A stretch of DNA of 64,000 nt from assembly GCA_000165345.1 (NCBI GenBank), contig CM000429.1:96001-160000 (forward strand), given 5' to 3'. A program made the translations under genes and the position numbers. Shown here one piece after another: positions 16,051-56,933 of this stretch. The notes below the pieces were generated by a model. That model did not search any database and was not told the DNA's origin. It saw only the letters and a program-made list of their open reading frames with translations. The stretch's first letter is position 1, and the number at the start of each line of letters is the position of its first letter.

Positions 16051-16548
16051 TTAAATGTATGATGCACATAATTGGCCAGTTGGCTTTGTAGTACCCATAA
16101 TGATACCAATAATGACACCATAAATGGCCAAAGCTTCACCGAAAACCAAAATCAAAATCATACCAGTAAGAAGTCTTGGTTGTTGAGCAGCAGCTCTAAC
16201 ACCAGCATCACCGACAATACCAATAGCAAGACCGGCAGCTAAACTACTGAGACCAATAACCAAACCAGCGCTCATTTGAGCATAAGCAGTGTAAGCAGAG
16301 TACAAATTTGGTTCTCCCATCTGGAAGAAAATGACCAAAGAACCAATCAAACCATAAATACCCAAAATACCTGCCATAACAGCTGGAATAATTGATCTCA
16401 TAATTAAATCTGGTCTCATTACGGCCATAGATGAAATACCAACACCTGATTTAGCAATTCCATAAGCTGCTCCTAAGTTTGCAAAAATCAAGCATCCTGC
16501 AATTCCCAGAAATCCAAAAAATAAACTGTTTGGGTCACAAGTGATCAT
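16051..16548 (-). CDS. VHA-c: V-type H+-ATPase 16 kDa proteolipid subunit c (165 aa)
   Basis: Four transmembrane helices. Signature GAAYGIAKSGVGI...MRPDLIMRSIIPAVMAGILGIYGL...IVGDAGVRAAAQQPRLLTGMILILVFGEALAIYGVI with the conserved proton-binding Glu in TM4. Confidence 0.9.
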   Translation of the reverse strand: MITCDPNSLFFGFLGIAGCLIFANLGAAYGIAKSGVGISSMAVMRPDLIMRSIIPAVMAGILGIYGLIGSLVIFFQMGEPNLYSAYTAYAQMSAGLVIGLSSLAAGLAIGIVGDAGVRAAAQQPRLLTGMILILVFGEALAIYGVIIGIIMGTTKPTGQLCASYI

Positions 16549-17180
16549 CTTTTATCTACCAATATACAGCTAATTGCCTTTCAGCGATTATTGTTTAATT
16601 ATATAACAAAGTTCTTGTACTTACGATTCTTAATAGAAAAAAAAATTTCTATATTGAACCAAGCTTGCCTAATATTAGTTAGAATTTGTCTCTTGGGGGT
16701 ACATTATTGGATAAATCTTACCGCCACAATTTGGCGGTAATGATTCAATTATTCCTCAAAGTTGCTCAAATTACTTATTAAATATTCCTTAAAATGAACT
16801 AAAATTGTGTCCCAGATTAATTATTTTTTACTGAAAAATCAAATTTATTTTATTCACAAAGGTCGATATTTTTTAATTATTTTTTTGTTTTTAATTTATC
16901 AAAATTCATATTTTATTCTTTGTTTTTTATGCTGATATTTATATATATTTCATCTTCTTAAAGTCTACTCACAATTTTCTCTACAATTTTAAACTAGTCG
17001 TATGATCATAAATCTTCTATTCTTTTGAATCATTTGAATCATTTCGAGAAGTTTTTCGTTCTATATGAAATTCTATTGCTAATAACTTTGGCGCCAGACA
17101 TACGGCGCCTCAATAATAACATTGAAATACGATAAATAACGCTGCATTTTGATTAGGAAGTTACGAATTAATAAATAAAG

Positions 17181-17420
17181 ATGTTTTTGAGGTTTTACAA
17201 GAACGAGAAAGGAGAGAGAGTTTATACATTATCGGTAAGTTTTTGATTTTTTTTTCTATTATGAATGCTTAATGATATTGAAAATTAATAGGCAGTGAAT
17301 AAGGAGGGTGAAATCACATTTTCAGCTCATCCTGCAAGATTTTCTCCTGATGACATTTATTCATCTCAGAGAATTGCATGCAAAAAGAGGTTTGGACTAT
17401 TACCAACTCAGCGTCAATAA
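17181..17420 (+). CDS. NOP10: H/ACA snoRNP protein NOP10 (60 aa), two exons: join(17181..17234, 17292..17420)
   Basis: No track [21 protein letters not shown] | GTAAGT ... ttaatAG | [42 protein letters not shown]. Matches the NOP10 consensus (YTLK....[29 protein letters not shown]). Intron 57 nt. 183 nt = 61 codons. Confidence 0.8.
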
Positions 17421-17878: not shown

Positions 17879-18376
17879 TTACTTAATAGGTACACAAAGA
17901 TTATTCGCAGAAGGGCTGGAAATGAGTACCAATGAAACAATAATACCATAAATTGCAAGTGCTTCACCAAAGATAAGTATAAGCATTGAAGCAACAAATA
18001 ACTTAGATTGTTGAGCAGTACCACGAATTCCTGCATCACCTGCAACACCTATAGTAAAACCACTAGCAGCACAACTGAAACCAGAGATTAATCCAGCAGC
18101 AAGATGACAATATCCCTGATATAATGAATAGTCTGTCCTTATTTGAGAACAAATAATGACTCCCACAATTAAACCATAAACTCCTAAAATACCTGCCATA
18201 ACAGCTGGAATAATTGATCTCATTACTAAATCTGGTCTCATTACACCACATGATGCAATTGCTAATCCTGCTTTAGCTGTACCATAAGCTGCTCCAAAGT
18301 TTGATAAAGCTGTAGCCAAAGTTGAACCAAGCATTCCAAATAAAGTTGCTGTTGGTGTACAAAATGGAGGTGCCAT
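17879..18376 (-). CDS. second V-ATPase proteolipid c-type paralog (165 aa)
   Basis: MAPPFCTPTATLFGMLGSTLATALSNFGAAYGTAKAGLAIA...MRPDLVMRSIIPAVMAGILGVYGLIVGVII...IGVAGDAGIRGTAQQSKLFVASMLILIFGEALAIYGIIV. Same fold and orientation as 16051..16548, roughly half the residues identical. Confidence 0.85.
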   Translation of the reverse strand: MAPPFCTPTATLFGMLGSTLATALSNFGAAYGTAKAGLAIASCGVMRPDLVMRSIIPAVMAGILGVYGLIVGVIICSQIRTDYSLYQGYCHLAAGLISGFSCAASGFTIGVAGDAGIRGTAQQSKLFVASMLILIFGEALAIYGIIVSLVLISSPSANNLCVPIK

Positions 18377-19404
18377 CTTTATCTAATTTTCTTATCTCTG
18401 TTTTCAATAATATAACAATTGGTAGATATTCTCTATTATTTGTTCAAGATTCCGTAAATTTCCGAATTTTGTCTAATAAACTTTTATTAGTCTAATCTTC
18501 TTTAATCGATCTTCTAATTGGAATCTTTTTCAAATCTTATTACTATTATTATTTTCTTTCAGTTTTTCCTTTCCCTCGTAATTGATATTTTTCTCTTAAT
18601 TATTTAATTCTCAATATTCACCAAACCTACCCATTTTACCGCCATGAGACAATTTCCTTCCCGCCTATTTCTTATTGCTTTATATTAATTTTTTGGTTAA
18701 GAAAATTTCTGTCATCCACTCTCTTTTCAAATTTGAATTAATAAAATGGATTAATATTGTGTTTTTATAGCTTAGTATCAGCTTTATAAGTTTTCAAAAA
18801 AAACAATTGAACGAAAAAGCATAAATATTGTTAATTGCGCATTGAATGTTCACTATTTTTGTTTTTTTTTCTCTTGAACTTTATACATTCTTTTTTCTTG
18901 ATTAACTTATTAATTTTTATATAAATTTTGGGAAAAATTACAATATATGAGTTACAGACAATTTCACGATTGGTTGATATCTGAATAGTTTTTTTTTTTT
19001 TTTGCCTTTTCTTTTTGATTTTTTTTCATTAATTCCTTTATTTCTCACATTTCAAATACTTCTGCGAAATACGGTCATATTGTTTTGCTCTTCATATCGA
19101 TATTTGCATGATTATCTTTTAACATTCATTCTTTTTCCTAATTTAAAATAAATAATTTATGTGGATGCATGCCATTAATATATTCAGTTAAAAACGATGA
19201 CGTAATACATGCAGAAAATGATTAAACAAATTATTGTCATGCAATTTGTATACCGGTCTGCAAACATTACATGCAAATTACACGTAATAAGTAATGTAGT
19301 AAATGTTGAGAAAAGAAAATATATTAAACAAGTAAAACAAAAAAACAAAGTTATCATACAAAATGTATTATATATAAATACATAAATATATATTTTAAAT
19401 CTAA

Positions 19405-20094
19405 CTACCTGGTCATTTCAGCTGCAAGCATTGAATGATTTTCCGTCCATGCTTCTTCTGTCTGAACTTTTTTTAACCTAAAAAAAAAGAATTATGAGTA
19501 ATAAGTATATAAAATTAATATAATTATGGCAACAATTATTAGATAAATTTGGAAAGGAAGAATATCTCCAAATAATTAAGAGAATTCTCATTCATTTGTG
19601 ATGATGATTATTATTATTCCCTTTAAATTCATATAATAGCCATAATTTAATTTAATAATATAAAACTTACATTCTTTTATGGTCCTTACTTTTATTATGA
19701 GACATTAAAGATGGAGAATCAATAAAATATCTTGCACATGTAATACAATAAAACTGGCCTAAAGTTTATTATGATTAATTATATTAAATTTCATTATTTT
19801 GTTTAATCCATTATAACGTACCATTTCCTGGCAAATCTAGATCCACTGGTAAATTTACACCTTTTATATAATCATTTTGAACTAAATATCAAGAAATAAT
19901 GAAAAAATAATAAGGGAAAAAAAAAGGAGGAAAATTGGAAAATAATTTAATAATCTGCTTTACCCCCTTTTTTCTTTCTATTAAAACTTACCAGTCTCAA
20001 AATCCTTCGTTCTTCTTTTAGTCTTCACATACTTTCCTACAGCTCTATTTTTTGCTCTTCCTGCTTTTCTAGATTTTCTTTGACCAAGCCCCAT
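19405..20094 (-). CDS. BUD20: Bud20 / ZNF593-type C2H2 zinc-finger protein (60S subunit export/biogenesis factor), 107 aa, four exons: join(20094..19992, 19881..19822, 19758..19671, 19477..19405)
   Basis: No track ORF. MGLGQRKSRKAGRAKNRAVGKYVKTKRRTKDFET-V-QNDYIKGVNLPVDLDLPGN-G-QFYCITCARYFIDSPSLMSHNKSKDHKR-M-LKKVQTEEAWTENHSMLAAEMTR*. Compare yeast Bud20 (RYSVKRYKTKRRTRDLD...LPGLGQHYCIHCAKYMET...HLKGKVHKRRVKEL) and human ZNF593 (HKKRLKQL...QEEAERAAGMG). Donors GTAAGT, GTACGT, GTAAGT. 324 nt = 108 codons. Confidence 0.7.
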
Positions 20095-20330
20095 TGAGTT
20101 TTTGAAATAACAACTAGAAATTTAAAAAAAAAAAAAAAAAACTTTTTTCTTATTATTATCTGAAAATTGTCCTCTAAATAATTATTCTAATATTACCAAA
20201 CTCTCTTCACCTTTAATCCTCTTTTATTCTTATCCACTTAATATGGAAATATACCGATAATCATTAAAGATAAGATGAAATCTCTATTTCATCTTTATTT
20301 TATAAATACCATTTTGTAAAGTCTGACATT

Positions 20331-20350
20331 GGCGCCAAAGTTTTGGCGCC
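20331..20350. promoter_or_regulatory. tandem E2F-like GGCGCC boxes in the divergent promoter between Bud20 (-) and the giant gene (+)
   Basis: attGGCGCCaaagttttGGCGCCcgtt. Confidence 0.5.
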
Positions 20351-20769
20351 CGTTACTGTAATTTAATTTTTTAATAATAAATTGTGTGGAATAAAGAAAA
20401 ATTCATTATTGGTTGATTAATATATGAAGAAAAGGATCCAAAAAGGATTCACCAATTATTAAAAAGTTGTGATTTATATCTATGCTTCTTTTATAAGAGT
20501 TTTATCAATTATTTAAACTTTTTAAGAACTGTTTTTATCATTTAATAAGTAATTTATTATAAAAAGAGTTTGCTGAAGAAATTATTTAAAGCTTCTTATA
20601 TTATAGAGTTGAAAGAAATACCAATAAATAATTATTAATTTGTGGCCTTTTATGATTCTGAAATGCAAGAATATCAATTATATTCAAGTAATTAAAGCAT
20701 TATTTAAAGTCAATGCACTTTTAGTGTAATTGGTTGAATGAATATATATTTGGAAAAGCAATCAGAAAA

Positions 20770-23700
20770 ATGAGTGTTTTACAAATCATTCTTTCAATAA
20801 TATTAATAATATTCTCTCTATTATGTATATTTGTCCATATTTTAAAACAATTTCTTCAAAAAAAAGGCTTTGAAGTTTCTTTTTCTGGATTTTTTTCACT
20901 TGGAAATTTGAAAATAAAGATACTTGAAAAATATCTTAAAAAATATGATAATATTAGTGGATTCGAATTTTTTCTTTCAAAAATTTCAATCAGATTTCAA
21001 TCTTGGAAGCTTAAGTTTATTTTATATGAAAGTAAATGTATTTGTTTTATATTAAATGGAAATCATTTCAAAAACAAACAATTTGATCATCATCTTTCCC
21101 AATATTCTAGATTACAAAATCATTCATCTAGAAAAACTAATATTGGTACTGATGATAATAGTATTGGAATTATTCGTAATTTAATGTTAATTGTTACAGC
21201 ACAAATTATTTCCAGAATTATTTTATTTGAACTTGAAAATATTCAATTCCAATTTTATATGGTTGATTGTAAATGTATTGGTAATCATAGAAATCTTAAA
21301 ATTACTCAAGATGGTAGATGTGAAAAATGTGGTATTCAAATGAAGTATGGTATATATTCCAAACTTGATATTAATAGTTTAAGTATATTTCCAAAAGCTT
21401 ATTTTGGTGGAATCATGGTAAATTTTCTAATAAATAATCCAGTATTATACTTGAATCCTATTGAAAATACAATTTCTGAAAAAAGATGTCATACATTTTA
21501 TTTAAATTCCAATAATAAATATAATTCATCATCCAATCATAAAACAAGTATTTTGAATTATATTCTTAATCAGTTTTACATGAAAAATAATAAAACTATA
21601 TCAAAAAAATGCCATTCAAATCAAAATAATTATCCTCCTTTAATTTATATTGATAATAATTTAAATATTAAACTCAAATTAATGCATTCAATGTCTGGAT
21701 CTGATATTAGAGTTTGTATTCTTCGAAATGTGAATATTGAAATGAATCAACTTTGGATTACATTAATACCAGAAATTATTTGTGAACTGGTTTATATATT
21801 TCATACAATTAAATCCAATTTTAAGAATTTGAATAAAATTTCTTTTAATAAAAATAATCTTCAAGTATTAGATCCCAACATTATTAATCAATCTGATCCA
21901 ATTATTAAGTTATCCCCAAAATACCAATTATTAAGTAATAATGTACTTCCAATATCTCCTATTCCTTTAGCATCACCTTCTTCTCCAAGTATAATATCAT
22001 CATCAAACTCATACTCTCATTCTCCTCTTCCTCCTTCATTTGGTAACTTTGAAAATAAAGTCCCTAGAAATAAGAAAAAGCTTATAATGAATGAGAATTT
22101 AGATAGACAACTTCAAATTACCTTCAAAATTTCTCAACCATCTTTAATATTTTGTGATAATACTCAATCTAGCTCAGGTTTTGAGATATTATTTCATGAA
22201 TTTGAAGCACATCTTATAATTCAATATTTTATTGAATATCTTCAAAGTACACTTAAACTTTATAATCAAGATTATGATTTTGAATCTTCAAATTCAGAAA
22301 TATCTGACTTTAATATTATTGGTAATGAATCCAATCATTTTGATTTAGATACAACAGACTTGAAAAAAAAAACTAGAAGAAGCTTAAAACTTGTTTTTGG
22401 AAGTAAGCTTATCTTTGGGAATTCTATTTTATATTTAAACCCTAAAGAAAGCCATTATTTTTCAAAACAAATTATGCCAAATACCATAAAAGATGGAGAT
22501 TTTACCTTTGATCGAATGTTTGTGATTGAACATTATAAATCAATTGTTGAGATTTCTGACAACAATTTTGTTAAGCTTTATTTGAAGAGTTCCATTCAAA
22601 GAATGTTTGGAATATGGAGGGAAAATGGATTTTACCAGAACCTGACTCTATTTCTCCAATTAATTAAGTTTCAAAAGTACCTTTCCAAGATTAAAAACCA
22701 AGTTAATATTGATAATAGTGGTAATAGTAATAACAATAATAATAATAATAATAATAATAATATTGAAAAACCATTCATAGATCAAGCAACTGAAGAGATT
22801 CCAAAATTGCCTTCAAGAGTTGAATTGGAAGATGACGATATTCTTAAAAGTGATTTTCTTATTAAGAATAACAAATACTTAAAAGAGATTATGACAATTA
22901 AAGATTTTGCAGTTAATTTACTCTTTTACCTTGAAATCAAAGATATTACCATTCAAACCAATGATATTAATTGTTTTAACCATGAACTACACATTCTCAA
23001 AAAGAATGATTGCTCTAACAATCATTGTGAAAATTGTTTTATTGAATCCTTTGGTCCAAAAGAAAGGTATGAATGGAGAACTGATTTTGATTATGAATCA
23101 GATACCAAGTTCAATATGAAAATTAAAAAAGATGATAATGATACTGATCATGATAATCATAATGATGACAAGTTCTTCATTTTGAAAATTAATAATTTGA
23201 AGATCTGTAATACATCAATAAATAGAAGTTTCTCAATGCTCTTTTCTGATTTAGATCTTTACAGTATGAATGAATTTATTGATTTGGAAGATATATCTAC
23301 CAAGTATTTAAATTTACCATCATGCTTGAAACATAACCATGATATTTTAGATTTTCAAAAAACATGTATTTATCGTTATGGTTGTTTTGACCAAAGAATT
23401 CAAGTATTAAACTTTGAAATCTCACCAAAAATTAGAGATAAAAACCATTTAGTCAAATTATGTGAATCAATTATTATATCTCCTTGGGATTATAAAAGAA
23501 TTTCACTCAGATTTAAAGGTATTAATGGAAATCTCCATACTTGTTATATTCCAATATACCTTTATATTTTGGGTTGTTTTAGTATTGATTGTCTTGCTCT
23601 TAAAAAGAATAATTTAAACAAAGTTTATTATGGAATAAATAACCAATTTGAAGAAAATTTTGATTTTTATTGTAACCAAAGATTTAATTATTTTGAAAAA

Positions 23701-26700
23701 TTTAATGAAATAAAAAATGATATTTCCAATATTATCAGAGAATTTAATCCTCAAGAATTAAAAAATAGAAATATACAATTTTGGAATATTCCTGATTTAA
23801 TACAAAGTAAAGTTGGATCTTTAAAATATACTTGGTACTTTGACTTTGATGATATCACAGTAAACTTTTTGGATGGTTTTAAATTATTAGTTAATAAATT
23901 AAGCCTTTATAGATGTAATGAATATGGAAATTATGATATAAAAATGAATAATGTTAAGATATTTGATATTTTTGGTATTAATATTATTAATTCAAATTGT
24001 ATTAGATTAAGATCTGATATACCATATAAAAGTACCAAAATTAAATCACCAATTTGTCTTAAAAAACAACTGAGAAGAATTTTAGATTTGTCAGTGAATG
24101 GAGATTTACTTTTGCTTTCTATTCTTGGAAATACAGAAAAATCTGAGAATAACTTGAAAGATATTAATAATGGAATGATTTTCTTTGATTCAAAAAGGTT
24201 CATTCTTGAAATAGATAAGCTTGATATATTATTCTTTGTAAATTGTGAATATATGGAATCTTTTTTCAAATACTTTTATCAGTATATATATATAACTTAT
24301 TATCAGTTATTCCATCCTCCTTTAATAATAAGAACAGGAAAATTACTTTCATTTTCACGTAATCATCCAATAATCTTTTCTTGCAATAATATATTTGATT
24401 TTTCAATTACAAAAATGAATTTAAGCTTAATAAGTTTAGCTAATTTTATGCTTTCACAAAACTTTGAAAGATTTTCTCTTGGTTCTTCAGTATATAGAAA
24501 CAAAATTTACTCCAAGGATGATTTATATATTCAAAATAATTTTAAATTTGATAATTCTTTAAATCATAAAATAAAATTTGGAATTAATAATATCTTTAAC
24601 TTACCAATTTTTGAATTAAAATTAGATAATTTAAGATTAATCATCCGAACAAAGCATACATCCAATTCAAAATCTGTTTGTAATGATAGGGAATGTTACA
24701 ACATTCCAAACTATCTTACTAATAGTATGATTTCGGAAGAAGGATTTCTTATTAATTCAAGTTATAATCCAATCAATATTTTTGTATCTTTATTTGGAAT
24801 TTCTTTCAATTTATATAACCAATTGAATCTGTATAAAAGCAGAACCACAATTCAATCAAGGAAAGAAATTACTTTTTTTAGCGAGAATATTGTTATTGAC
24901 TTTAGAAGGAATTATTCTCATGTGGATTCCAATATTAATGGTGATTTTCCTGAGTTAAGTTCTGATGTGACAATTTCAATTTACTCAAAGTCTAAGACTT
25001 CAGTTAATTTGAGTAATGCAAGCTCATTTAAAGCCATAAAATTTATAAATCCAATCTTTGAAATGATTAAAAATTGTCCAAATTTCAAATCCAAGTTTCA
25101 AAAAAGTAACTGTGAGGTCTTCTCAAAAGAATTCAAGAATATAATCATCTCAAGAAATACCCTGATAATTTCTATCATCACTTCGGATTTGACAAGCTTG
25201 TATTTGGTTCCTTATATTAATCTTCAAAGCGAAAGAGAAATGAGTGAAAATTCTTCAGTATGTATTCAATTACCAAAAATTGAATTTTATTTGAAAAAGT
25301 ATAATAATTCTCATGTTGAAAATCAAGAAATAAATAACTTTTTAAGTCAGATAGAATCATCTTCTTTATTTCTTAAGGAAGGAATCTTAATTTGGATACT
25401 TTCCAAAGAAATCTTTGCTCCTGTATCAAATAAAAAACTTCAATGTCGTCTTTCTTCAATTTTGAATTCAAAAAATCAAAAATACTCTTTAAAAAGTACC
25501 TTGGTTTCTATTTCAAAGTTCAATATAAATACTCAAAGGAATACATATAATAATTTCAATATAAAATTGGACTTGGATGGTTTGGATAAGAAGTCAATAA
25601 TAGAAAGATGTTTTGGAAATGACTTTAATAATGGTGATAATACTCAAAATATGGTTATACCTTTGACTTTAAATTTGGATTCAGAGAAATTGATCCAACT
25701 TTCCACAATATTAGAATCTTTTCTTGATGAAAGTAATTTTGATAGTATTTCCATATATTATTGTGAAGATTGCAATAAATTTAAACCAACAAAATCAGAG
25801 TCTTTATTGAGATCACAAAAAGTTTTGAATTTGGATCAAAAAAGCTTATCCCATGAAAAGAATAATAATCAACCAGAATTGAACTTTAAATTAAAAATTT
25901 CTTTGAATTATATTAATTTGAGATATGAAATCTTTAGCCTGATAATTAATCATGTATTACTTGACTTGAGATATTGTAATTCAAAGATTGGAAATCTGAA
26001 ATTAGGAATAAAAGAAACTCAGCTGATTGCTGAATATTTTCCATATAAACTCAGTCAATTTTCTAAGTCATCCCAGTCTTTCAAAATTTTACGTGAATCT
26101 AGTATTCAGATATCTTCAAACTTTAGTGCGAAAACAAAAATGTTGGAAATAGCTAGAATTGGAAGTATTTTTTTTGATAATAATAATGACTCAATTTTGC
26201 TTGTTTTAAGAGCTCCTCAATTTAGTTTAAGTACTTTAACAATTATTTACTTGGAAGTTTTAATTAAAATCATTAATATGTTAAAGTTAAAATCAAAAAG
26301 AGTTCCATTCAAAAACGAGAAATCTTCATTAAGTCCAATAAATAATACATCATCTATTCCTTTAATTTCAGGAAGGAAGCTGAATATCCAGATTAATGAA
26401 ATTATGTTTAATATGCATAATCTTGGAACTTTTAGAGATTATACAATTCAAAGAGATGATCGAAAGTTTCGTCTTGGATCTAGCTATTCAGGATTCAAAA
26501 AGATAAATATAGTACCTGATTTAGATACTCAAAGTGAATTTCTTTTTCAAGTTATAGAAAGGAATCCAATAAATAGTACTTTTACTTTAGTTGATGATTT
26601 GGAAGAATCAAATACAAATCTTGATATTTTTAAAGGTAACAATGGCCAATCTTGTCTTGAATGTAGGTATCATTTAAACAAAGCACTAATATATACTTCA

Positions 26701-29700
26701 AGAATTTCCACAGATTTGAAAGATAATAACCATTTTCGAGGAAATACTAATATTAATATTAGTAATTGCAATAATAATAGCAGTAGTAGTAACAGTCAAT
26801 TCGATGAAATCTTTAGGAATTATTGCAATGACTACTTCTCCTTGCTTGATGAGCATGTGATTTCAGACAAATATCAAAAATCCAGCTTTGAGATGATCCA
26901 AGAATATAAGAGGATTTGTTTATATACTGAAAGTAATATAAGCATCCCTTTAGAATATGGCCAAATAACAGATTACATGATTCTTGGAGAATTTGGATAT
27001 GGAATAAAATCTGATCATATTTCATTATCAAGAAGCTTTAAGCAAATAATAACTAGGATTCCTAGAGTTGATTGCTCAATTGGTATTCATGATAGAAACA
27101 AGAATTTCGAGTTTGTATTAAAGATATTTCCTGTTTCAATTGATGTTTTTCTCTCAAACAGATTGATTTGGGATTTGTTTGGAGAATGTACACTTGAGGA
27201 TTTATTTGATATAAATAAGGAAGATCATCCCAGAATTTTTCCAGAAATCTCCAATTATTATTGCTGTAGATCAGAAGAGTCATTTCAATGGGATGATCAT
27301 AATTGCCAGGCTCACCCTCATTCTCAAAATGACTGTAGTAGGATCATTTCCGATATTCCACATGTAATAAAAAGTAATGAGAATTTTGAGGTGGTGACGG
27401 AAAATTTCTTATCATCTTCATCATCATCCTCTCCGCCTTTAGCCCTCATAGAGGAATTCCAATCGGATAGAAAAAGAAGTTTATATGATTCCACTCAAGA
27501 GATTCTGAAGACAACTCCCATTTTTGTTAGTATTCGAATTCATACAGAAAAACCAAGTACTCAACTAAAGATGTATTCAAAACTGCTTTCAGTTTCAATT
27601 GATTCAAGTAGAGTCCAATCAATTAATGAGATCTTGAATTCATTTGAGCTCAGGAATATAAACACAAACAAGAATAATCCGTCGTACCAAGTATCCAATA
27701 ATATCTCAAATCACCCTTCAACTTTGACCAGTTCGAACAATACAACTATAAATAATCATCCAATGAGCGTTTTGTCAAACACAATGAATAGTGTTGCAGG
27801 TGGAAATCTTCCACCTCCAATTTACTATTCACATAACTTGAACCCAACAAACAGTATAGTAAGTTCTGGAGATCAGGCCCAAAATCTAAGTTCCCATATT
27901 TCACAACAAGGATACAACTTTAATGCATATCCCACAGCAAAGACTCCTTCAGTATTATCTTTCTCGAACTATTTTTACGACCAAAAACAAGAACAGGGTC
28001 AAAGAATAAACGCAATGAACCTATTGAACTTGAATAATAAAACCAAGAATGCAAATCCCAAATCTAATTCTTTGGACTTTAATGCCAATCGACTTCTTTT
28101 AAATTGTGATTTGAATGATAAGAATGTAATGAATATGCTTAAGTTTGAAATTGATAAATTTTTAGCAGATAATCCGCTTTTTTATACAGTTGTTGATAAT
28201 ATCCAATGTCAGGCTGGAGGAGACAATAACCATCTTAACCAATATAGGCTTCAGATAGAATGTATTGTAGATCAGCTGAATGTTGATATGTTCATTAATA
28301 ACAAAAGATTCTCAAATTTCCAATCAAAAGATATTAACTTTGTTATGTTCTCAAATAATAATCCTTCAAACTCAACAATAATAGAGTTTGATACATCATT
28401 TATCCATTTATCGGCCAATAAAGACTTTGTACAGTCGAATGGCAACTCAAATGTTATTCCAGGTACAAACGGCGTTGGTAGTGGCGTTGTTTCTGGTAAC
28501 AATAATAGCAATTACAATAATCAAATTAACTTTAATATCTCGAATTCCAATTTAAATCCAAATTCAAACAATATCTTCAATGCAAATGGTAATGGTATTG
28601 GTAATGGAAATGTAAATTCCAATATCATTGGAGAAGGTGGAACGGGTCTTAATCATAATAACTCAGGCTTGAATGTTAGTTCGGTATCTACGATTGAAAA
28701 TAGCATTAATGCAACTTCTCAGGAAGAAATTTCCATAATTCATCCCATGTACATTGATGGACATACTAGTCAGGGGCATGGACATGTTTTATCAATTCGT
28801 ATAAATATGAGGCAGGTTAGATTACTAGAAGTATATAACATACGAATCTTAGAGAGCGTTGTAATCAGAGTCCATCCAATTCGGGTAAACATTACTCAAT
28901 ATTTAACTTCTTGTTACTATGATATATTCTTCCCACCACCAATAACAAACCAGCCAAGCATGACTTCAATCCAAATTGGAAGTAATACCCAGAACTTTTT
29001 ACAAATGTCAAATGTTGCTTCTGAAGCTGCTTCATCCAAGATAAAAGAAGATAATGCTATTTATGCCGAAAACTCTTACATTATCAATAGTAATACCAAT
29101 AGTGATATAACAATACCAACAATTGAACAAGAAAATTCTTCTTTAACATTTAATAACCAACAACCACAAAATAATAACACATCAGTAGACACGCAAAACT
29201 GCTCAAAAAATATACTATACTTTAATTACCTTCGAATATCATCAATTCTTGTGGAAGTCACTTATCGTGGATCTGTATCGTTAAATAACGTACTTTTGGA
29301 ACTTAGCTCTTTCACTCAAAGAAGAAAGCATAGAACTGTAAAGGAAATGGTTGACAAATATATCTCTTTCCTTAGACGTCAAGCTGCTAGACCTGTTATT
29401 TCATATACTTTCAAACAACTCAGACACTCTTTACTTCCTAAACACTTCAAATCCCATAAACGTAATAGCAACTATAATTCTCATTATGATATTATCCAAG
29501 CAAATATTCAAAATAACCACCTTAATAATGGAAATGAACGTTCCTTGAAAATTGATTCTTCTTATCAAGACCTTCTTTCTGAAACTACAAACAATGGAAA
29601 TCATTCCAATTACAACAATAATATTAACTCCATTCTTTCTAAAAACGACGATGACCTTCCTAACACTTATCGCAAGATTCAAAATACCAACTGCTCAAAA

Positions 29701-29757
29701 AATGACTCAGAATACAATAAATTTAGACTCATCTTTGGTAATCAACTTTTGATTTAA
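20770..29757 (+). CDS. giant (~2995 aa) Asn/Ile/Ser-rich protein with an N-terminal transmembrane anchor; function unknown
   Basis: The first codon of track ORF 20734 is TTG. The first ATG in frame is at 20770 (MSVLQIILSIILIIFSLLCIFVHIL, a transmembrane helix). The frame stays open to 29757. Poly-Asn encoded by (AAT)n at about 22735-22775. Confidence 0.6.
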   Translation: MSVLQIILSIILIIFSLLCIFVHILKQFLQKKGFEVSFSGFFSLGNLKIKILEKYLKKYDNISGFEFFLSKISIRFQSWKLKFILYESKCICFILNGNHFKNKQFDHHLSQYSRLQNHSSRKTNIGTDDNSIGIIRNLMLIVTAQIISRIILFELENIQFQFYMVDCKCIGNHRNLKITQDGRCEKCGIQMKYGIYSKLDINSLSIFPKAYFGGIMVNFLINNPVLYLNPIENTISEKRCHTFYLNSNNKYNSSSNHKTSILNYILNQFYMKNNKTISKKCHSNQNNYPPLIYIDNNLNIKLKLMHSMSGSDIRVCILRNVNIEMNQLWITLIPEIICELVYIFHTIKSNFKNLNKISFNKNNLQVLDPNIINQSDPIIKLSPKYQLLSNNVLPISPIPLASPSSPSIISSSNSYSHSPLPPSFGNFENKVPRNKKKLIMNENLDRQLQITFKISQPSLIFCDNTQSSSGFEILFHEFEAHLIIQYFIEYLQSTLKLYNQDYDFESSNSEISDFNIIGNESNHFDLDTTDLKKKTRRSLKLVFGSKLIFGNSILYLNPKESHYFSKQIMPNTIKDGDFTFDRMFVIEHYKSIVEISDNNFVKLYLKSSIQRMFGIWRENGFYQNLTLFLQLIKFQKYLSKIKNQVNIDNSGNSNNNNNNNNNNNIEKPFIDQATEEIPKLPSRVELEDDDILKSDFLIKNNKYLKEIMTIKDFAVNLLFYLEIKDITIQTNDINCFNHELHILKKNDCSNNHCENCFIESFGPKERYEWRTDFDYESDTKFNMKIKKDDNDTDHDNHNDDKFFILKINNLKICNTSINRSFSMLFSDLDLYSMNEFIDLEDISTKYLNLPSCLKHNHDILDFQKTCIYRYGCFDQRIQVLNFEISPKIRDKNHLVKLCESIIISPWDYKRISLRFKGINGNLHTCYIPIYLYILGCFSIDCLALKKNNLNKVYYGINNQFEENFDFYCNQRFNYFEKFNEIKNDISNIIREFNPQELKNRNIQFWNIPDLIQSKVGSLKYTWYFDFDDITVNFLDGFKLLVNKLSLYRCNEYGNYDIKMNNVKIFDIFGINIINSNCIRLRSDIPYKSTKIKSPICLKKQLRRILDLSVNGDLLLLSILGNTEKSENNLKDINNGMIFFDSKRFILEIDKLDILFFVNCEYMESFFKYFYQYIYITYYQLFHPPLIIRTGKLLSFSRNHPIIFSCNNIFDFSITKMNLSLISLANFMLSQNFERFSLGSSVYRNKIYSKDDLYIQNNFKFDNSLNHKIKFGINNIFNLPIFELKLDNLRLIIRTKHTSNSKSVCNDRECYNIPNYLTNSMISEEGFLINSSYNPINIFVSLFGISFNLYNQLNLYKSRTTIQSRKEITFFSENIVIDFRRNYSHVDSNINGDFPELSSDVTISIYSKSKTSVNLSNASSFKAIKFINPIFEMIKNCPNFKSKFQKSNCEVFSKEFKNIIISRNTLIISIITSDLTSLYLVPYINLQSEREMSENSSVCIQLPKIEFYLKKYNNSHVENQEINNFLSQIESSSLFLKEGILIWILSKEIFAPVSNKKLQCRLSSILNSKNQKYSLKSTLVSISKFNINTQRNTYNNFNIKLDLDGLDKKSIIERCFGNDFNNGDNTQNMVIPLTLNLDSEKLIQLSTILESFLDESNFDSISIYYCEDCNKFKPTKSESLLRSQKVLNLDQKSLSHEKNNNQPELNFKLKISLNYINLRYEIFSLIINHVLLDLRYCNSKIGNLKLGIKETQLIAEYFPYKLSQFSKSSQSFKILRESSIQISSNFSAKTKMLEIARIGSIFFDNNNDSILLVLRAPQFSLSTLTIIYLEVLIKIINMLKLKSKRVPFKNEKSSLSPINNTSSIPLISGRKLNIQINEIMFNMHNLGTFRDYTIQRDDRKFRLGSSYSGFKKINIVPDLDTQSEFLFQVIERNPINSTFTLVDDLEESNTNLDIFKGNNGQSCLECRYHLNKALIYTSRISTDLKDNNHFRGNTNINISNCNNNSSSSNSQFDEIFRNYCNDYFSLLDEHVISDKYQKSSFEMIQEYKRICLYTESNISIPLEYGQITDYMILGEFGYGIKSDHISLSRSFKQIITRIPRVDCSIGIHDRNKNFEFVLKIFPVSIDVFLSNRLIWDLFGECTLEDLFDINKEDHPRIFPEISNYYCCRSEESFQWDDHNCQAHPHSQNDCSRIISDIPHVIKSNENFEVVTENFLSSSSSSSPPLALIEEFQSDRKRSLYDSTQEILKTTPIFVSIRIHTEKPSTQLKMYSKLLSVSIDSSRVQSINEILNSFELRNINTNKNNPSYQVSNNISNHPSTLTSSNNTTINNHPMSVLSNTMNSVAGGNLPPPIYYSHNLNPTNSIVSSGDQAQNLSSHISQQGYNFNAYPTAKTPSVLSFSNYFYDQKQEQGQRINAMNLLNLNNKTKNANPKSNSLDFNANRLLLNCDLNDKNVMNMLKFEIDKFLADNPLFYTVVDNIQCQAGGDNNHLNQYRLQIECIVDQLNVDMFINNKRFSNFQSKDINFVMFSNNNPSNSTIIEFDTSFIHLSANKDFVQSNGNSNVIPGTNGVGSGVVSGNNNSNYNNQINFNISNSNLNPNSNNIFNANGNGIGNGNVNSNIIGEGGTGLNHNNSGLNVSSVSTIENSINATSQEEISIIHPMYIDGHTSQGHGHVLSIRINMRQVRLLEVYNIRILESVVIRVHPIRVNITQYLTSCYYDIFFPPPITNQPSMTSIQIGSNTQNFLQMSNVASEAASSKIKEDNAIYAENSYIINSNTNSDITIPTIEQENSSLTFNNQQPQNNNTSVDTQNCSKNILYFNYLRISSILVEVTYRGSVSLNNVLLELSSFTQRRKHRTVKEMVDKYISFLRRQAARPVISYTFKQLRHSLLPKHFKSHKRNSNYNSHYDIIQANIQNNHLNNGNERSLKIDSSYQDLLSETTNNGNHSNYNNNINSILSKNDDDLPNTYRKIQNTNCSKNDSEYNKFRLIFGNQLLI

Positions 29758-56852: not shown

Positions 56853-56933
56853 TGACAGGGACGGGATTCGAACCCGCGCAGTTACCTATAGGTGCCTAAA
56901 ACCTACCCCTTAGACCAACTCGGGCACCCTGCC
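56853..56933 (-). tRNA. tRNA-Leu(UAG): tRNA-Leu (anticodon UAG), class II with a long variable arm, 81 nt, no intron
   Basis: Reverse complement GGCAGGG TG CCCG AGTTGGTCTA AGGG G TAGGT TTTAGGC ACCTA TAGGTAACTGC GCGGG TTCGAAT CCCGT CCCTGTC A. 7-bp acceptor stem with one G-U pair, GTCTAAG D-loop typical of Leu, anticodon loop TT-TAG-GC, T-loop GGTTCGAATCC. Confidence 0.8.

Follow-up and report, generated by a model that had tools for sequence, protein, structure and literature searches.

In yeast, Bud20 joins late-stage pre-60S particles within the nucleoplasm and shuttles with them to the cytoplasm; efficient 60S export needs this protein, which binds FG nucleoporins and FG repeats through its zinc finger and interacts genetically with Nmd3 and Mex67-Mtr2 (PMC3542530). 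BUD20 is not essential, and the deletion strain is viable and slow-growing (PMC3542530). In the human system, ZNF593 was found on a nuclear pre-export pre-60S particle beside NMD3, GTPBP4, RLP24 and eIF6 and was gone by the next, cytoplasmic state (PMC7363849). Its basic N-terminal tail, which is missing from yeast Bud20, is buried among helices H35, H61, H62, H64 and H96 (PMC7363849). Regarding Bud20 in apicomplexans, our literature search returned nothing beyond a passing survey mention. Here we describe a four-exon gene on chromosome 1 of Cryptosporidium parvum which is very probably the orthologue of ZNF593 and Bud20, with a predicted product of 107 residues and three GT-AG spliceosomal introns.

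Exon structure and family assignment

The gene occupies positions 19405-20094 (690 nt) on the minus strand of the window, that is, of the whole 64,000-nucleotide stretch of DNA that was analysed, which is AT-rich (about 23–43% GC). The original prediction, made from raw sequence by a first-stage reader, had stated that no ORF of the automatic list covers this region, and indeed there is no long ORF here: only two minus-strand ORFs of at least 25 aa lie in the gene span, both of 37 aa, one being the read-through of exon 1 (19981-20094) and the other located inside intron 3. The start codon is the ATG at 20094, which opens the former ORF, and this ORF ends just past a GTAAGT. Joining the minus-strand segments 20094-19992, 19881-19822, 19758-19671 and 19477-19405 (103+60+88+73 = 324 nt) gave 107 codons and a stop, with the uninterrupted translation MGLGQRKSRKAGRAKNRAVGKYVKTKRRTKDFETVQNDYIKGVNLPVDLDLPGNGQFYCITCARYFIDSPSLMSHNKSKDHKRMLKKVQTEEAWTENHSMLAAEMTR. 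The predicted exon coordinates, the exon-1 reading, the intron phases (1, 1 and 2) and the total of 324 nt were all reproduced in this way.

Exon 1 (19992-20094, 103 nt; residues 1-34 and the first base of codon 35) reads MGLGQRKSRKAGRAKNRAVGKYVKTKRRTKDFET and encodes a basic N-terminal tail with a KTKRRTKDFE motif. It is followed by intron 1 (19882-19991, 110 nt, phase 1, GTAAGT..ATTTAG) and by exon 2 (19822-19881, 60 nt), which codes for residues 35-55, VQNDYIKGVNLPVDLDLPGNG, a pre-finger linker whose end codons are split by the flanking introns. Beyond intron 2 (19759-19821, 63 nt, phase 1, GTACGT..CTTTAG), exon 3 (19671-19758, 88 nt; residues 55-84) contains FYCITCARYFIDSPSLMSHNKSKDHKR and the entire C2H2 finger, which is thus encoded almost exactly by a single exon. 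Intron 3 (19478-19670, 193 nt, phase 2, GTAAGT..TTTTAG) precedes exon 4 (19405-19477, 73 nt including the TAG at 19405-19407; residues 84-107, (M)LKKVQTEEAWTENHSMLAAEMTR), whose product corresponds to the C-terminal helix and holds LKKVQTEEAW...AAEMTR. The finger and the LKKVQTEEAW...AAEM tail therefore lie in the exons to which they had been assigned. All three introns are of the GT..AG type and end in TTTAG, as expected for U2-type boundaries, and their GC content is 16–23% compared to 27–40% in the exons. Retention of intron 1 would lead to a stop after 3 codons, and retaining intron 2 or intron 3 likewise introduces stop codons.

The product had been predicted to be a Bud20/ZNF593 protein with a jaz-type C2H2 finger. 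Pfam identified zf-C2H2_jaz (PF12171) at residues 56-82 (E = 9.5e-8, 32.5 bits against a cutoff of 22.6), with the zinc ligands C59, C62, H75 and H81 in the spacing CX2CX12HX5H; these ligands are kept in 11/11 Cryptosporidium sequences under a uniform exon model. This 27-residue finger is all that Pfam recognises in the 107-aa product, a limit that would fit a generic jaz/U1-type single-finger RNA-binding protein which is not the functional counterpart of ZNF593/Bud20. Searches of solved structures make such an assignment extremely unlikely. With the single sequence as query, the matches were human ZNF593 (E = 6.8e-15), its Chaetomium homologue (3.9e-12) and yeast Bud20 (8e-12); a profile of the Cryptosporidium orthologues gave 7e-17, 1e-13 and 1e-11, respectively, and its match to human ZNF593 was colinear across query positions 7-103. 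These three proteins accounted for all of the top six distinct PDB sequences (E = 7e-15 to 8e-12). PRDM9 followed at E = 3e-5 with an alignment of the finger alone, and the other zinc-finger chains also showed finger-only alignments with far weaker scores.

The similarity to ZNF593 and Bud20 extends well past the finger and includes the basic N-terminus, a KTKRRT(K/R)D motif, a DLPG linker and an HKRxLK helix. The family motif K(T/A)KRR(T/R)xD(L/F)(D/E) was present at the N-terminus, colinear with the finger (VKTKRRTKDFET in Cryptosporidium, MKAKRRRPDLDE in human, YKTKRRTRDLDL in yeast and TKTRRRLRDLDQ in Chaetomium), and the basic helix after the finger, HK(R/K)xLKxL, reads DHKRMLKKV compared to DHKKRLKQL in the human and PHKRRLKQL in the Chaetomium protein. 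The exon 4 region aligned with that part of human ZNF593 and of its Chaetomium homologue in which the C-terminal helix lies, and EEAWTE..H.MLAAEMT is invariant across intestinal Cryptosporidium species. Size and single-domain layout also fit the ZNF593/Bud20 family, and the predicted product belongs to this family by every sequence-level criterion tested.

The best solved-structure match, human ZNF593 (PDB 6LSS chain 9 and 1ZR9), is also a small single-finger protein. It has in common with the Cryptosporidium protein the basic N-terminal tail, K(T/A)KRR..D, the DLPG linker, the CX2CX12HX5H finger and the HKxxLK helix, and CARYFIDS is identical in the two fingers. However, compared to human ZNF593 (134 aa), the Cryptosporidium protein (107 aa) has a shorter linker between motif and finger and a shorter C-terminus. 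Yeast Bud20 (PDB 3JCT chain I) has the KTKRRT(R/K)D motif, the finger and the following basic helix in common with it, but is longer (166 aa) and carries a C-terminal extension that is missing from the Cryptosporidium protein. The predicted colinearity with both proteins holds along the matched stretch. The alignment with human ZNF593 begins at chain residue 3, whereas that with Bud20 begins at query residue 21 (Bud20 residue 7), at the KTKRRT motif, which argues that the Cryptosporidium protein keeps the longer basic N-terminal tail that the human protein has and yeast Bud20 lacks.

Since all three conserved segments are kept, the Cryptosporidium protein may well have the same role as ZNF593 and Bud20, and that of a shuttling pre-60S assembly and export factor is the best-supported candidate function by homology. 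It would join late nuclear pre-60S ribosomal particles, with its basic N-terminal tail threading between rRNA helices and the single C2H2 finger and C-terminal helix sitting on the particle surface, and would then pass the nuclear pore with the particle and be released in the cytoplasm.

A word-indexed protein search returned Cryptosporidium proteins only; the wider family was reached when 1.84 billion representatives were searched exhaustively, which detected 706 relatives at E ≤ 1e-3, mostly of 95–170 aa and matched across most of their length. The nearest named relatives were from C. andersoni, the gregarine Selenidium, Cardiosporidium and Cystoisospora, and the Cardiosporidium and Cystoisospora proteins are labelled in their sources as "putative bud site selection protein" and "bud site selection", respectively. 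Outside Cryptosporidium, the closest relative (P0011, 128 aa, 48% identity) is encoded by an intronless gene (L015, 3001-3387) on a 146-kb ENA metagenome contig from a gene-dense eukaryote and was uninformative with regard to intron positions. We also considered fold evidence from AlphaFold2; the model obtained from a six-sequence Cryptosporidium alignment was too poor for this purpose (mean pLDDT 50, pTM 0.36), and the beta-beta-alpha pattern at residues 57-76 of this low-confidence model, which is compatible with a C2H2 finger, was not counted as evidence.

Conservation and deposited models

The gene is already known. Although it had been described as hidden and is invisible to a plain ORF track, the identical product is already deposited for both C. 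parvum and C. hominis, and its detection here is a correct re-discovery without novelty. A protein database search found the identical 107-aa protein on 11 contigs (accessions CUV03996.1, KAK9174246.1, KAL3129754.1 and KAL5370292.1), under the names "hypothetical protein CPHLJ_1g545" in C. parvum and "Zinc finger protein 593" in C. hominis (CUV03996.1). The C. parvum and C. hominis deposits have a 100% identical product and likewise a four-exon 690-nt span; the called gene span was 682–697 nt in six assemblies, and the 690-nt gene stretch of the window is identical to that in GCA_031892065.1 (record CP029780.1). Deposited orthologues also exist for chipmunk genotype I, C. felis and others. Biologically, our analysis confirms, for a conserved ribosome-assembly factor, the annotation already in place; it also illustrates that a correct multi-exon gene is recoverable from raw sequence by a first-stage reader.

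For C. parvum Iowa, 74 genes were added in the re-annotation of 2015, all with cDNA-library or RNA-seq support (PMC4637869), and the introns of the 2022 long-read re-annotation were all RNA-seq-supported according to its authors (PMC8744675). The ZNF593/Bud20 gene was not found by name in the texts of either re-annotation (PMC4637869, PMC8744675); the supplement of the former lists cgd1_540 and cgd1_550, and the gene was not found there under any name tried, nor was "cgd1_545" found in a literature search. Its link to the transcript evidence of these studies is therefore indirect. Support for the predicted intron coordinates comes from the deposited annotations and from comparison with orthologous loci in other assemblies and species. 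These loci provided a genomic DNA alignment of 10 sequences; the C. andersoni locus is the eleventh sequence compared.

The 103/60/88/73-nt exon model yielded a 324-nt coding sequence, with a product of 107 aa and no interrupting stop, in 11/11 Cryptosporidium genomic sequences. There was no exon gap in the 10-sequence alignment, whereas introns are indel-rich, yet keep GT..AG in every aligned sequence. Intron lengths varied from 49 to 116 nt (intron 1, 10 aligned sequences), from 48 to 64 nt (intron 2) and from 56 to 201 nt (intron 3, which has 60 nt in C. andersoni), and the length differences are not multiples of three. Among the aligned species, the five more distant ones had 69–91% identity in exons compared to 37–70% in introns. 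Substitutions were mainly at third positions: 7/3/55 by codon position for C. canis, and 19/19 synonymous third-position changes within the parvum/hominis group. Nei-Gojobori dN/dS values were 0.059 for C. ubiquitum, 0.062 for C. felis and 0.069 for C. andersoni. Synonymous sites are saturated across the 11 species, and the exons are still without indels or stops. This pattern points to strong purifying selection on the gene.

The same pattern bears on whether the four segments belong to a decaying pseudogene or are short ORFs joined in frame by chance, as one might suspect from the lack of a long ORF across the region and from the failure of the original ORF-based annotation to detect the gene. 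An older C. hominis record, which consists of the 37-aa exon-1 ORF alone and carries the UniRef label "30S ribosomal protein THX", shows how such annotation missed it. We assign next to no probability to this explanation: dN/dS is about 0.06, the 11 species have neither indels nor stops in the exons, splice sites are conserved and the homology E-values (7e-15 to 8e-12) are far beyond chance. Because of the conservation pattern, a pseudogene or chance join is effectively refuted.

A different question is whether the gene is real but its C. parvum transcript uses at least one different splice site, such that the product differs from the 107-aa model. Several deposited models, from six other species, deviate from this model (proteins P0002, P0004-P0008 and P0010; loci L008, L009, L010, L011 and L012), and a different choice of acceptor or donor underlies the entries for C. 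canis (131 and 114 aa), C. ubiquitum (101 aa), C. ryanae (119 aa), C. xiaoi (104 aa) and C. andersoni (100 aa). Lengths of 100, 101, 104, 119 and 131 aa have thus been deposited for other species, and several in-frame AG acceptors occur near exon 2 in C. andersoni, so alternative acceptor use may take place in some Cryptosporidium species. However, the 103/60/88/73-nt model is the only one that works in 11/11 sequences with the conserved residues kept. The alternatives drop conserved residues or add unconserved intron-derived sequence: for example, the finger is left without its first Cys pair in the C. ubiquitum model, and the C. canis models include intron-derived residues. The C. parvum and C. 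hominis deposits themselves use the 107-aa model, and a different product in C. parvum is very improbable.

In C. andersoni, which belongs to the gastric clade, the deposited 100-aa model has the three introns of C. parvum in identical phases. When the AG at L012:1669 is taken as acceptor, exon 2 becomes 60 nt and the protein 107 aa, and the residues thus added (VKSDFIKGVDL) match VQNDYIKGVNL of C. parvum. The deviating C. canis, C. ubiquitum, C. ryanae, C. xiaoi and C. andersoni models, as well as the 37-aa C. hominis record, are probably annotation errors, and the uniform 107-aa four-exon model, which fits 11 Cryptosporidium sequences, is useful in flagging them.

Intron density and intron age

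Re-annotation raised the proportion of intron-bearing C. parvum genes from 4.3% to 10.8%, with 2–10 exons each (mean 2.6), and the 688 introns of this organism have a mean length of 99 nt and a GC content of 22% (PMC4637869). From published figures (688 introns, and 3,865 genes of 1.78 kb), we calculated a genome mean of approximately 0.10 introns per kb. The ZNF593/Bud20 gene, with 3 introns in 0.324 kb, has 9.3 per kb of coding sequence, about 90 times this mean. Three introns in such a small gene had been called striking for an intron-poor lineage, which is justified with regard to density; on the other hand, introns in approximately 10.8% of genes, and genes with 2–10 exons, had already been reported. 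The gene is an outlier in intron density but not in kind, and we regard it as a mild curiosity.

To place the introns in other apicomplexans, exon maps of the Cardiosporidium and Cystoisospora genes were rebuilt from deposited proteins, which are computational annotations, and positioned on the protein alignment. Intron 1 (phase 1, directly after DFET / DADQ / DIDQ) is common to Cardiosporidium and Cystoisospora, and intron 2 (phase 1), which splits the Gly codon of GQFYC, is common to Cardiosporidium, in which exon 2 likewise has 60 nt. Intron 3 (phase 2, after KR) was found in Cryptosporidium only, where it is genus-wide; its position is empty in the gene models of Cardiosporidium and Cystoisospora, and the third intron of Cardiosporidium has another position and phase 0. 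Because introns 1 and 2 have position and phase in common with other apicomplexans, we read them as retained and not gained, and at least two introns of the gene appear to be old apicomplexan introns that were kept. The simplest account of all three would be survival from an apicomplexan ancestor through the intron loss that this lineage underwent. The gene offers a clear case of introns that are apparently ancestral and persist where most others of the lineage were lost.

A further step would be that the high intron density is more than a passive remnant, and that introns of small ribosome-biogenesis genes, such as ZNF593/Bud20 and Nop10 (see below), have been selectively kept because splicing aids their expression or regulation. 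For the introns of yeast ribosomal-protein genes, splicing has been argued to contribute to expression or regulation. In Cryptosporidium, this idea is based on introns 1 and 2 apparently predating the split from the compared apicomplexans and on intron 3 being genus-wide, and we consider it speculative and rather unlikely.

We also looked for RNA genes hosted by the introns. A permissive Rfam scan of positions 19300-20800, intron 3 included, detected no family at threshold, and candidates for an intron-hosted snoRNA or other ncRNA in this interval were limited to two sub-threshold plant-miRNA matches, which we attribute to chance. A conserved RNA inside intron 3 is disfavoured by the shrinkage of this intron to 56–60 nt in C. 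ryanae, C. xiaoi and C. andersoni.

Upstream region and neighbouring genes

The gene is arranged divergently with a giant gene, and the intergenic region from its ATG to the first ATG of the giant gene (20770) has 675 nt. A near-palindromic pair of E2F-like sites, GGCGCCAAAACTTTGGCGCC, is located at 20331-20350, 237–256 nt upstream of the ATG. The sequence TTGGCGCC has 12 sites in the window compared to 0.15 expected (about 80-fold enriched), and a [C/G]GCGC[G/C] core was present upstream of the gene in 11/11 Cryptosporidium sequences. Among upstream motifs of C. parvum, the E2F-like motif has been described as the most abundant one, and as over-represented upstream of ribosomal-protein genes (PMC3734150). 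The pair at 20331-20350 is likely a promoter element, and a divergent promoter with E2F-like sites probably drives the gene. In addition, a run of 18 T (as read on the minus strand) was observed at 20124-20141, 30–47 nt upstream of the ATG, and may be a promoter or 5'-UTR feature.

The giant gene corresponds to an intronless plus-strand ORF at 20734-29757 (3007 aa from a TTG start); its first ATG at 20770 gives 2995 aa, as annotated in the identical assembly. Its length is 2732–2998 aa across species, and a Pfam family is on record in none of them.

Another tiny intron-bearing ribosome-biogenesis gene was observed 2 kb from the ZNF593/Bud20 gene. It codes for the H/ACA snoRNP protein Nop10 (17181-17420, plus strand, 60 aa; exons 17181-17234 and 17292-17420) and is split by one 57-nt GTAAGT..AATAG intron. 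A TTGGCGCC site is located at 17088-17095, 86–93 nt upstream of its ATG. Nop10 is flanked by two minus-strand genes for V-ATPase proteolipids (ATP-synt_C), each of 165 aa (16051-16548 and 17879-18376). These two genes have about 41% nucleotide and 26% amino-acid identity in an ungapped position-by-position comparison, and we read the pair as old paralogues and not as a recent duplication. From C. parvum through to C. andersoni, these genes are found in a conserved order: giant gene, ZNF593/Bud20 gene, V-ATPase proteolipid, Nop10, V-ATPase proteolipid. The sole RNA gene of the window to reach the Rfam gathering score was a tRNA-Leu (anticodon TAG) at 56853-56933 on the minus strand.
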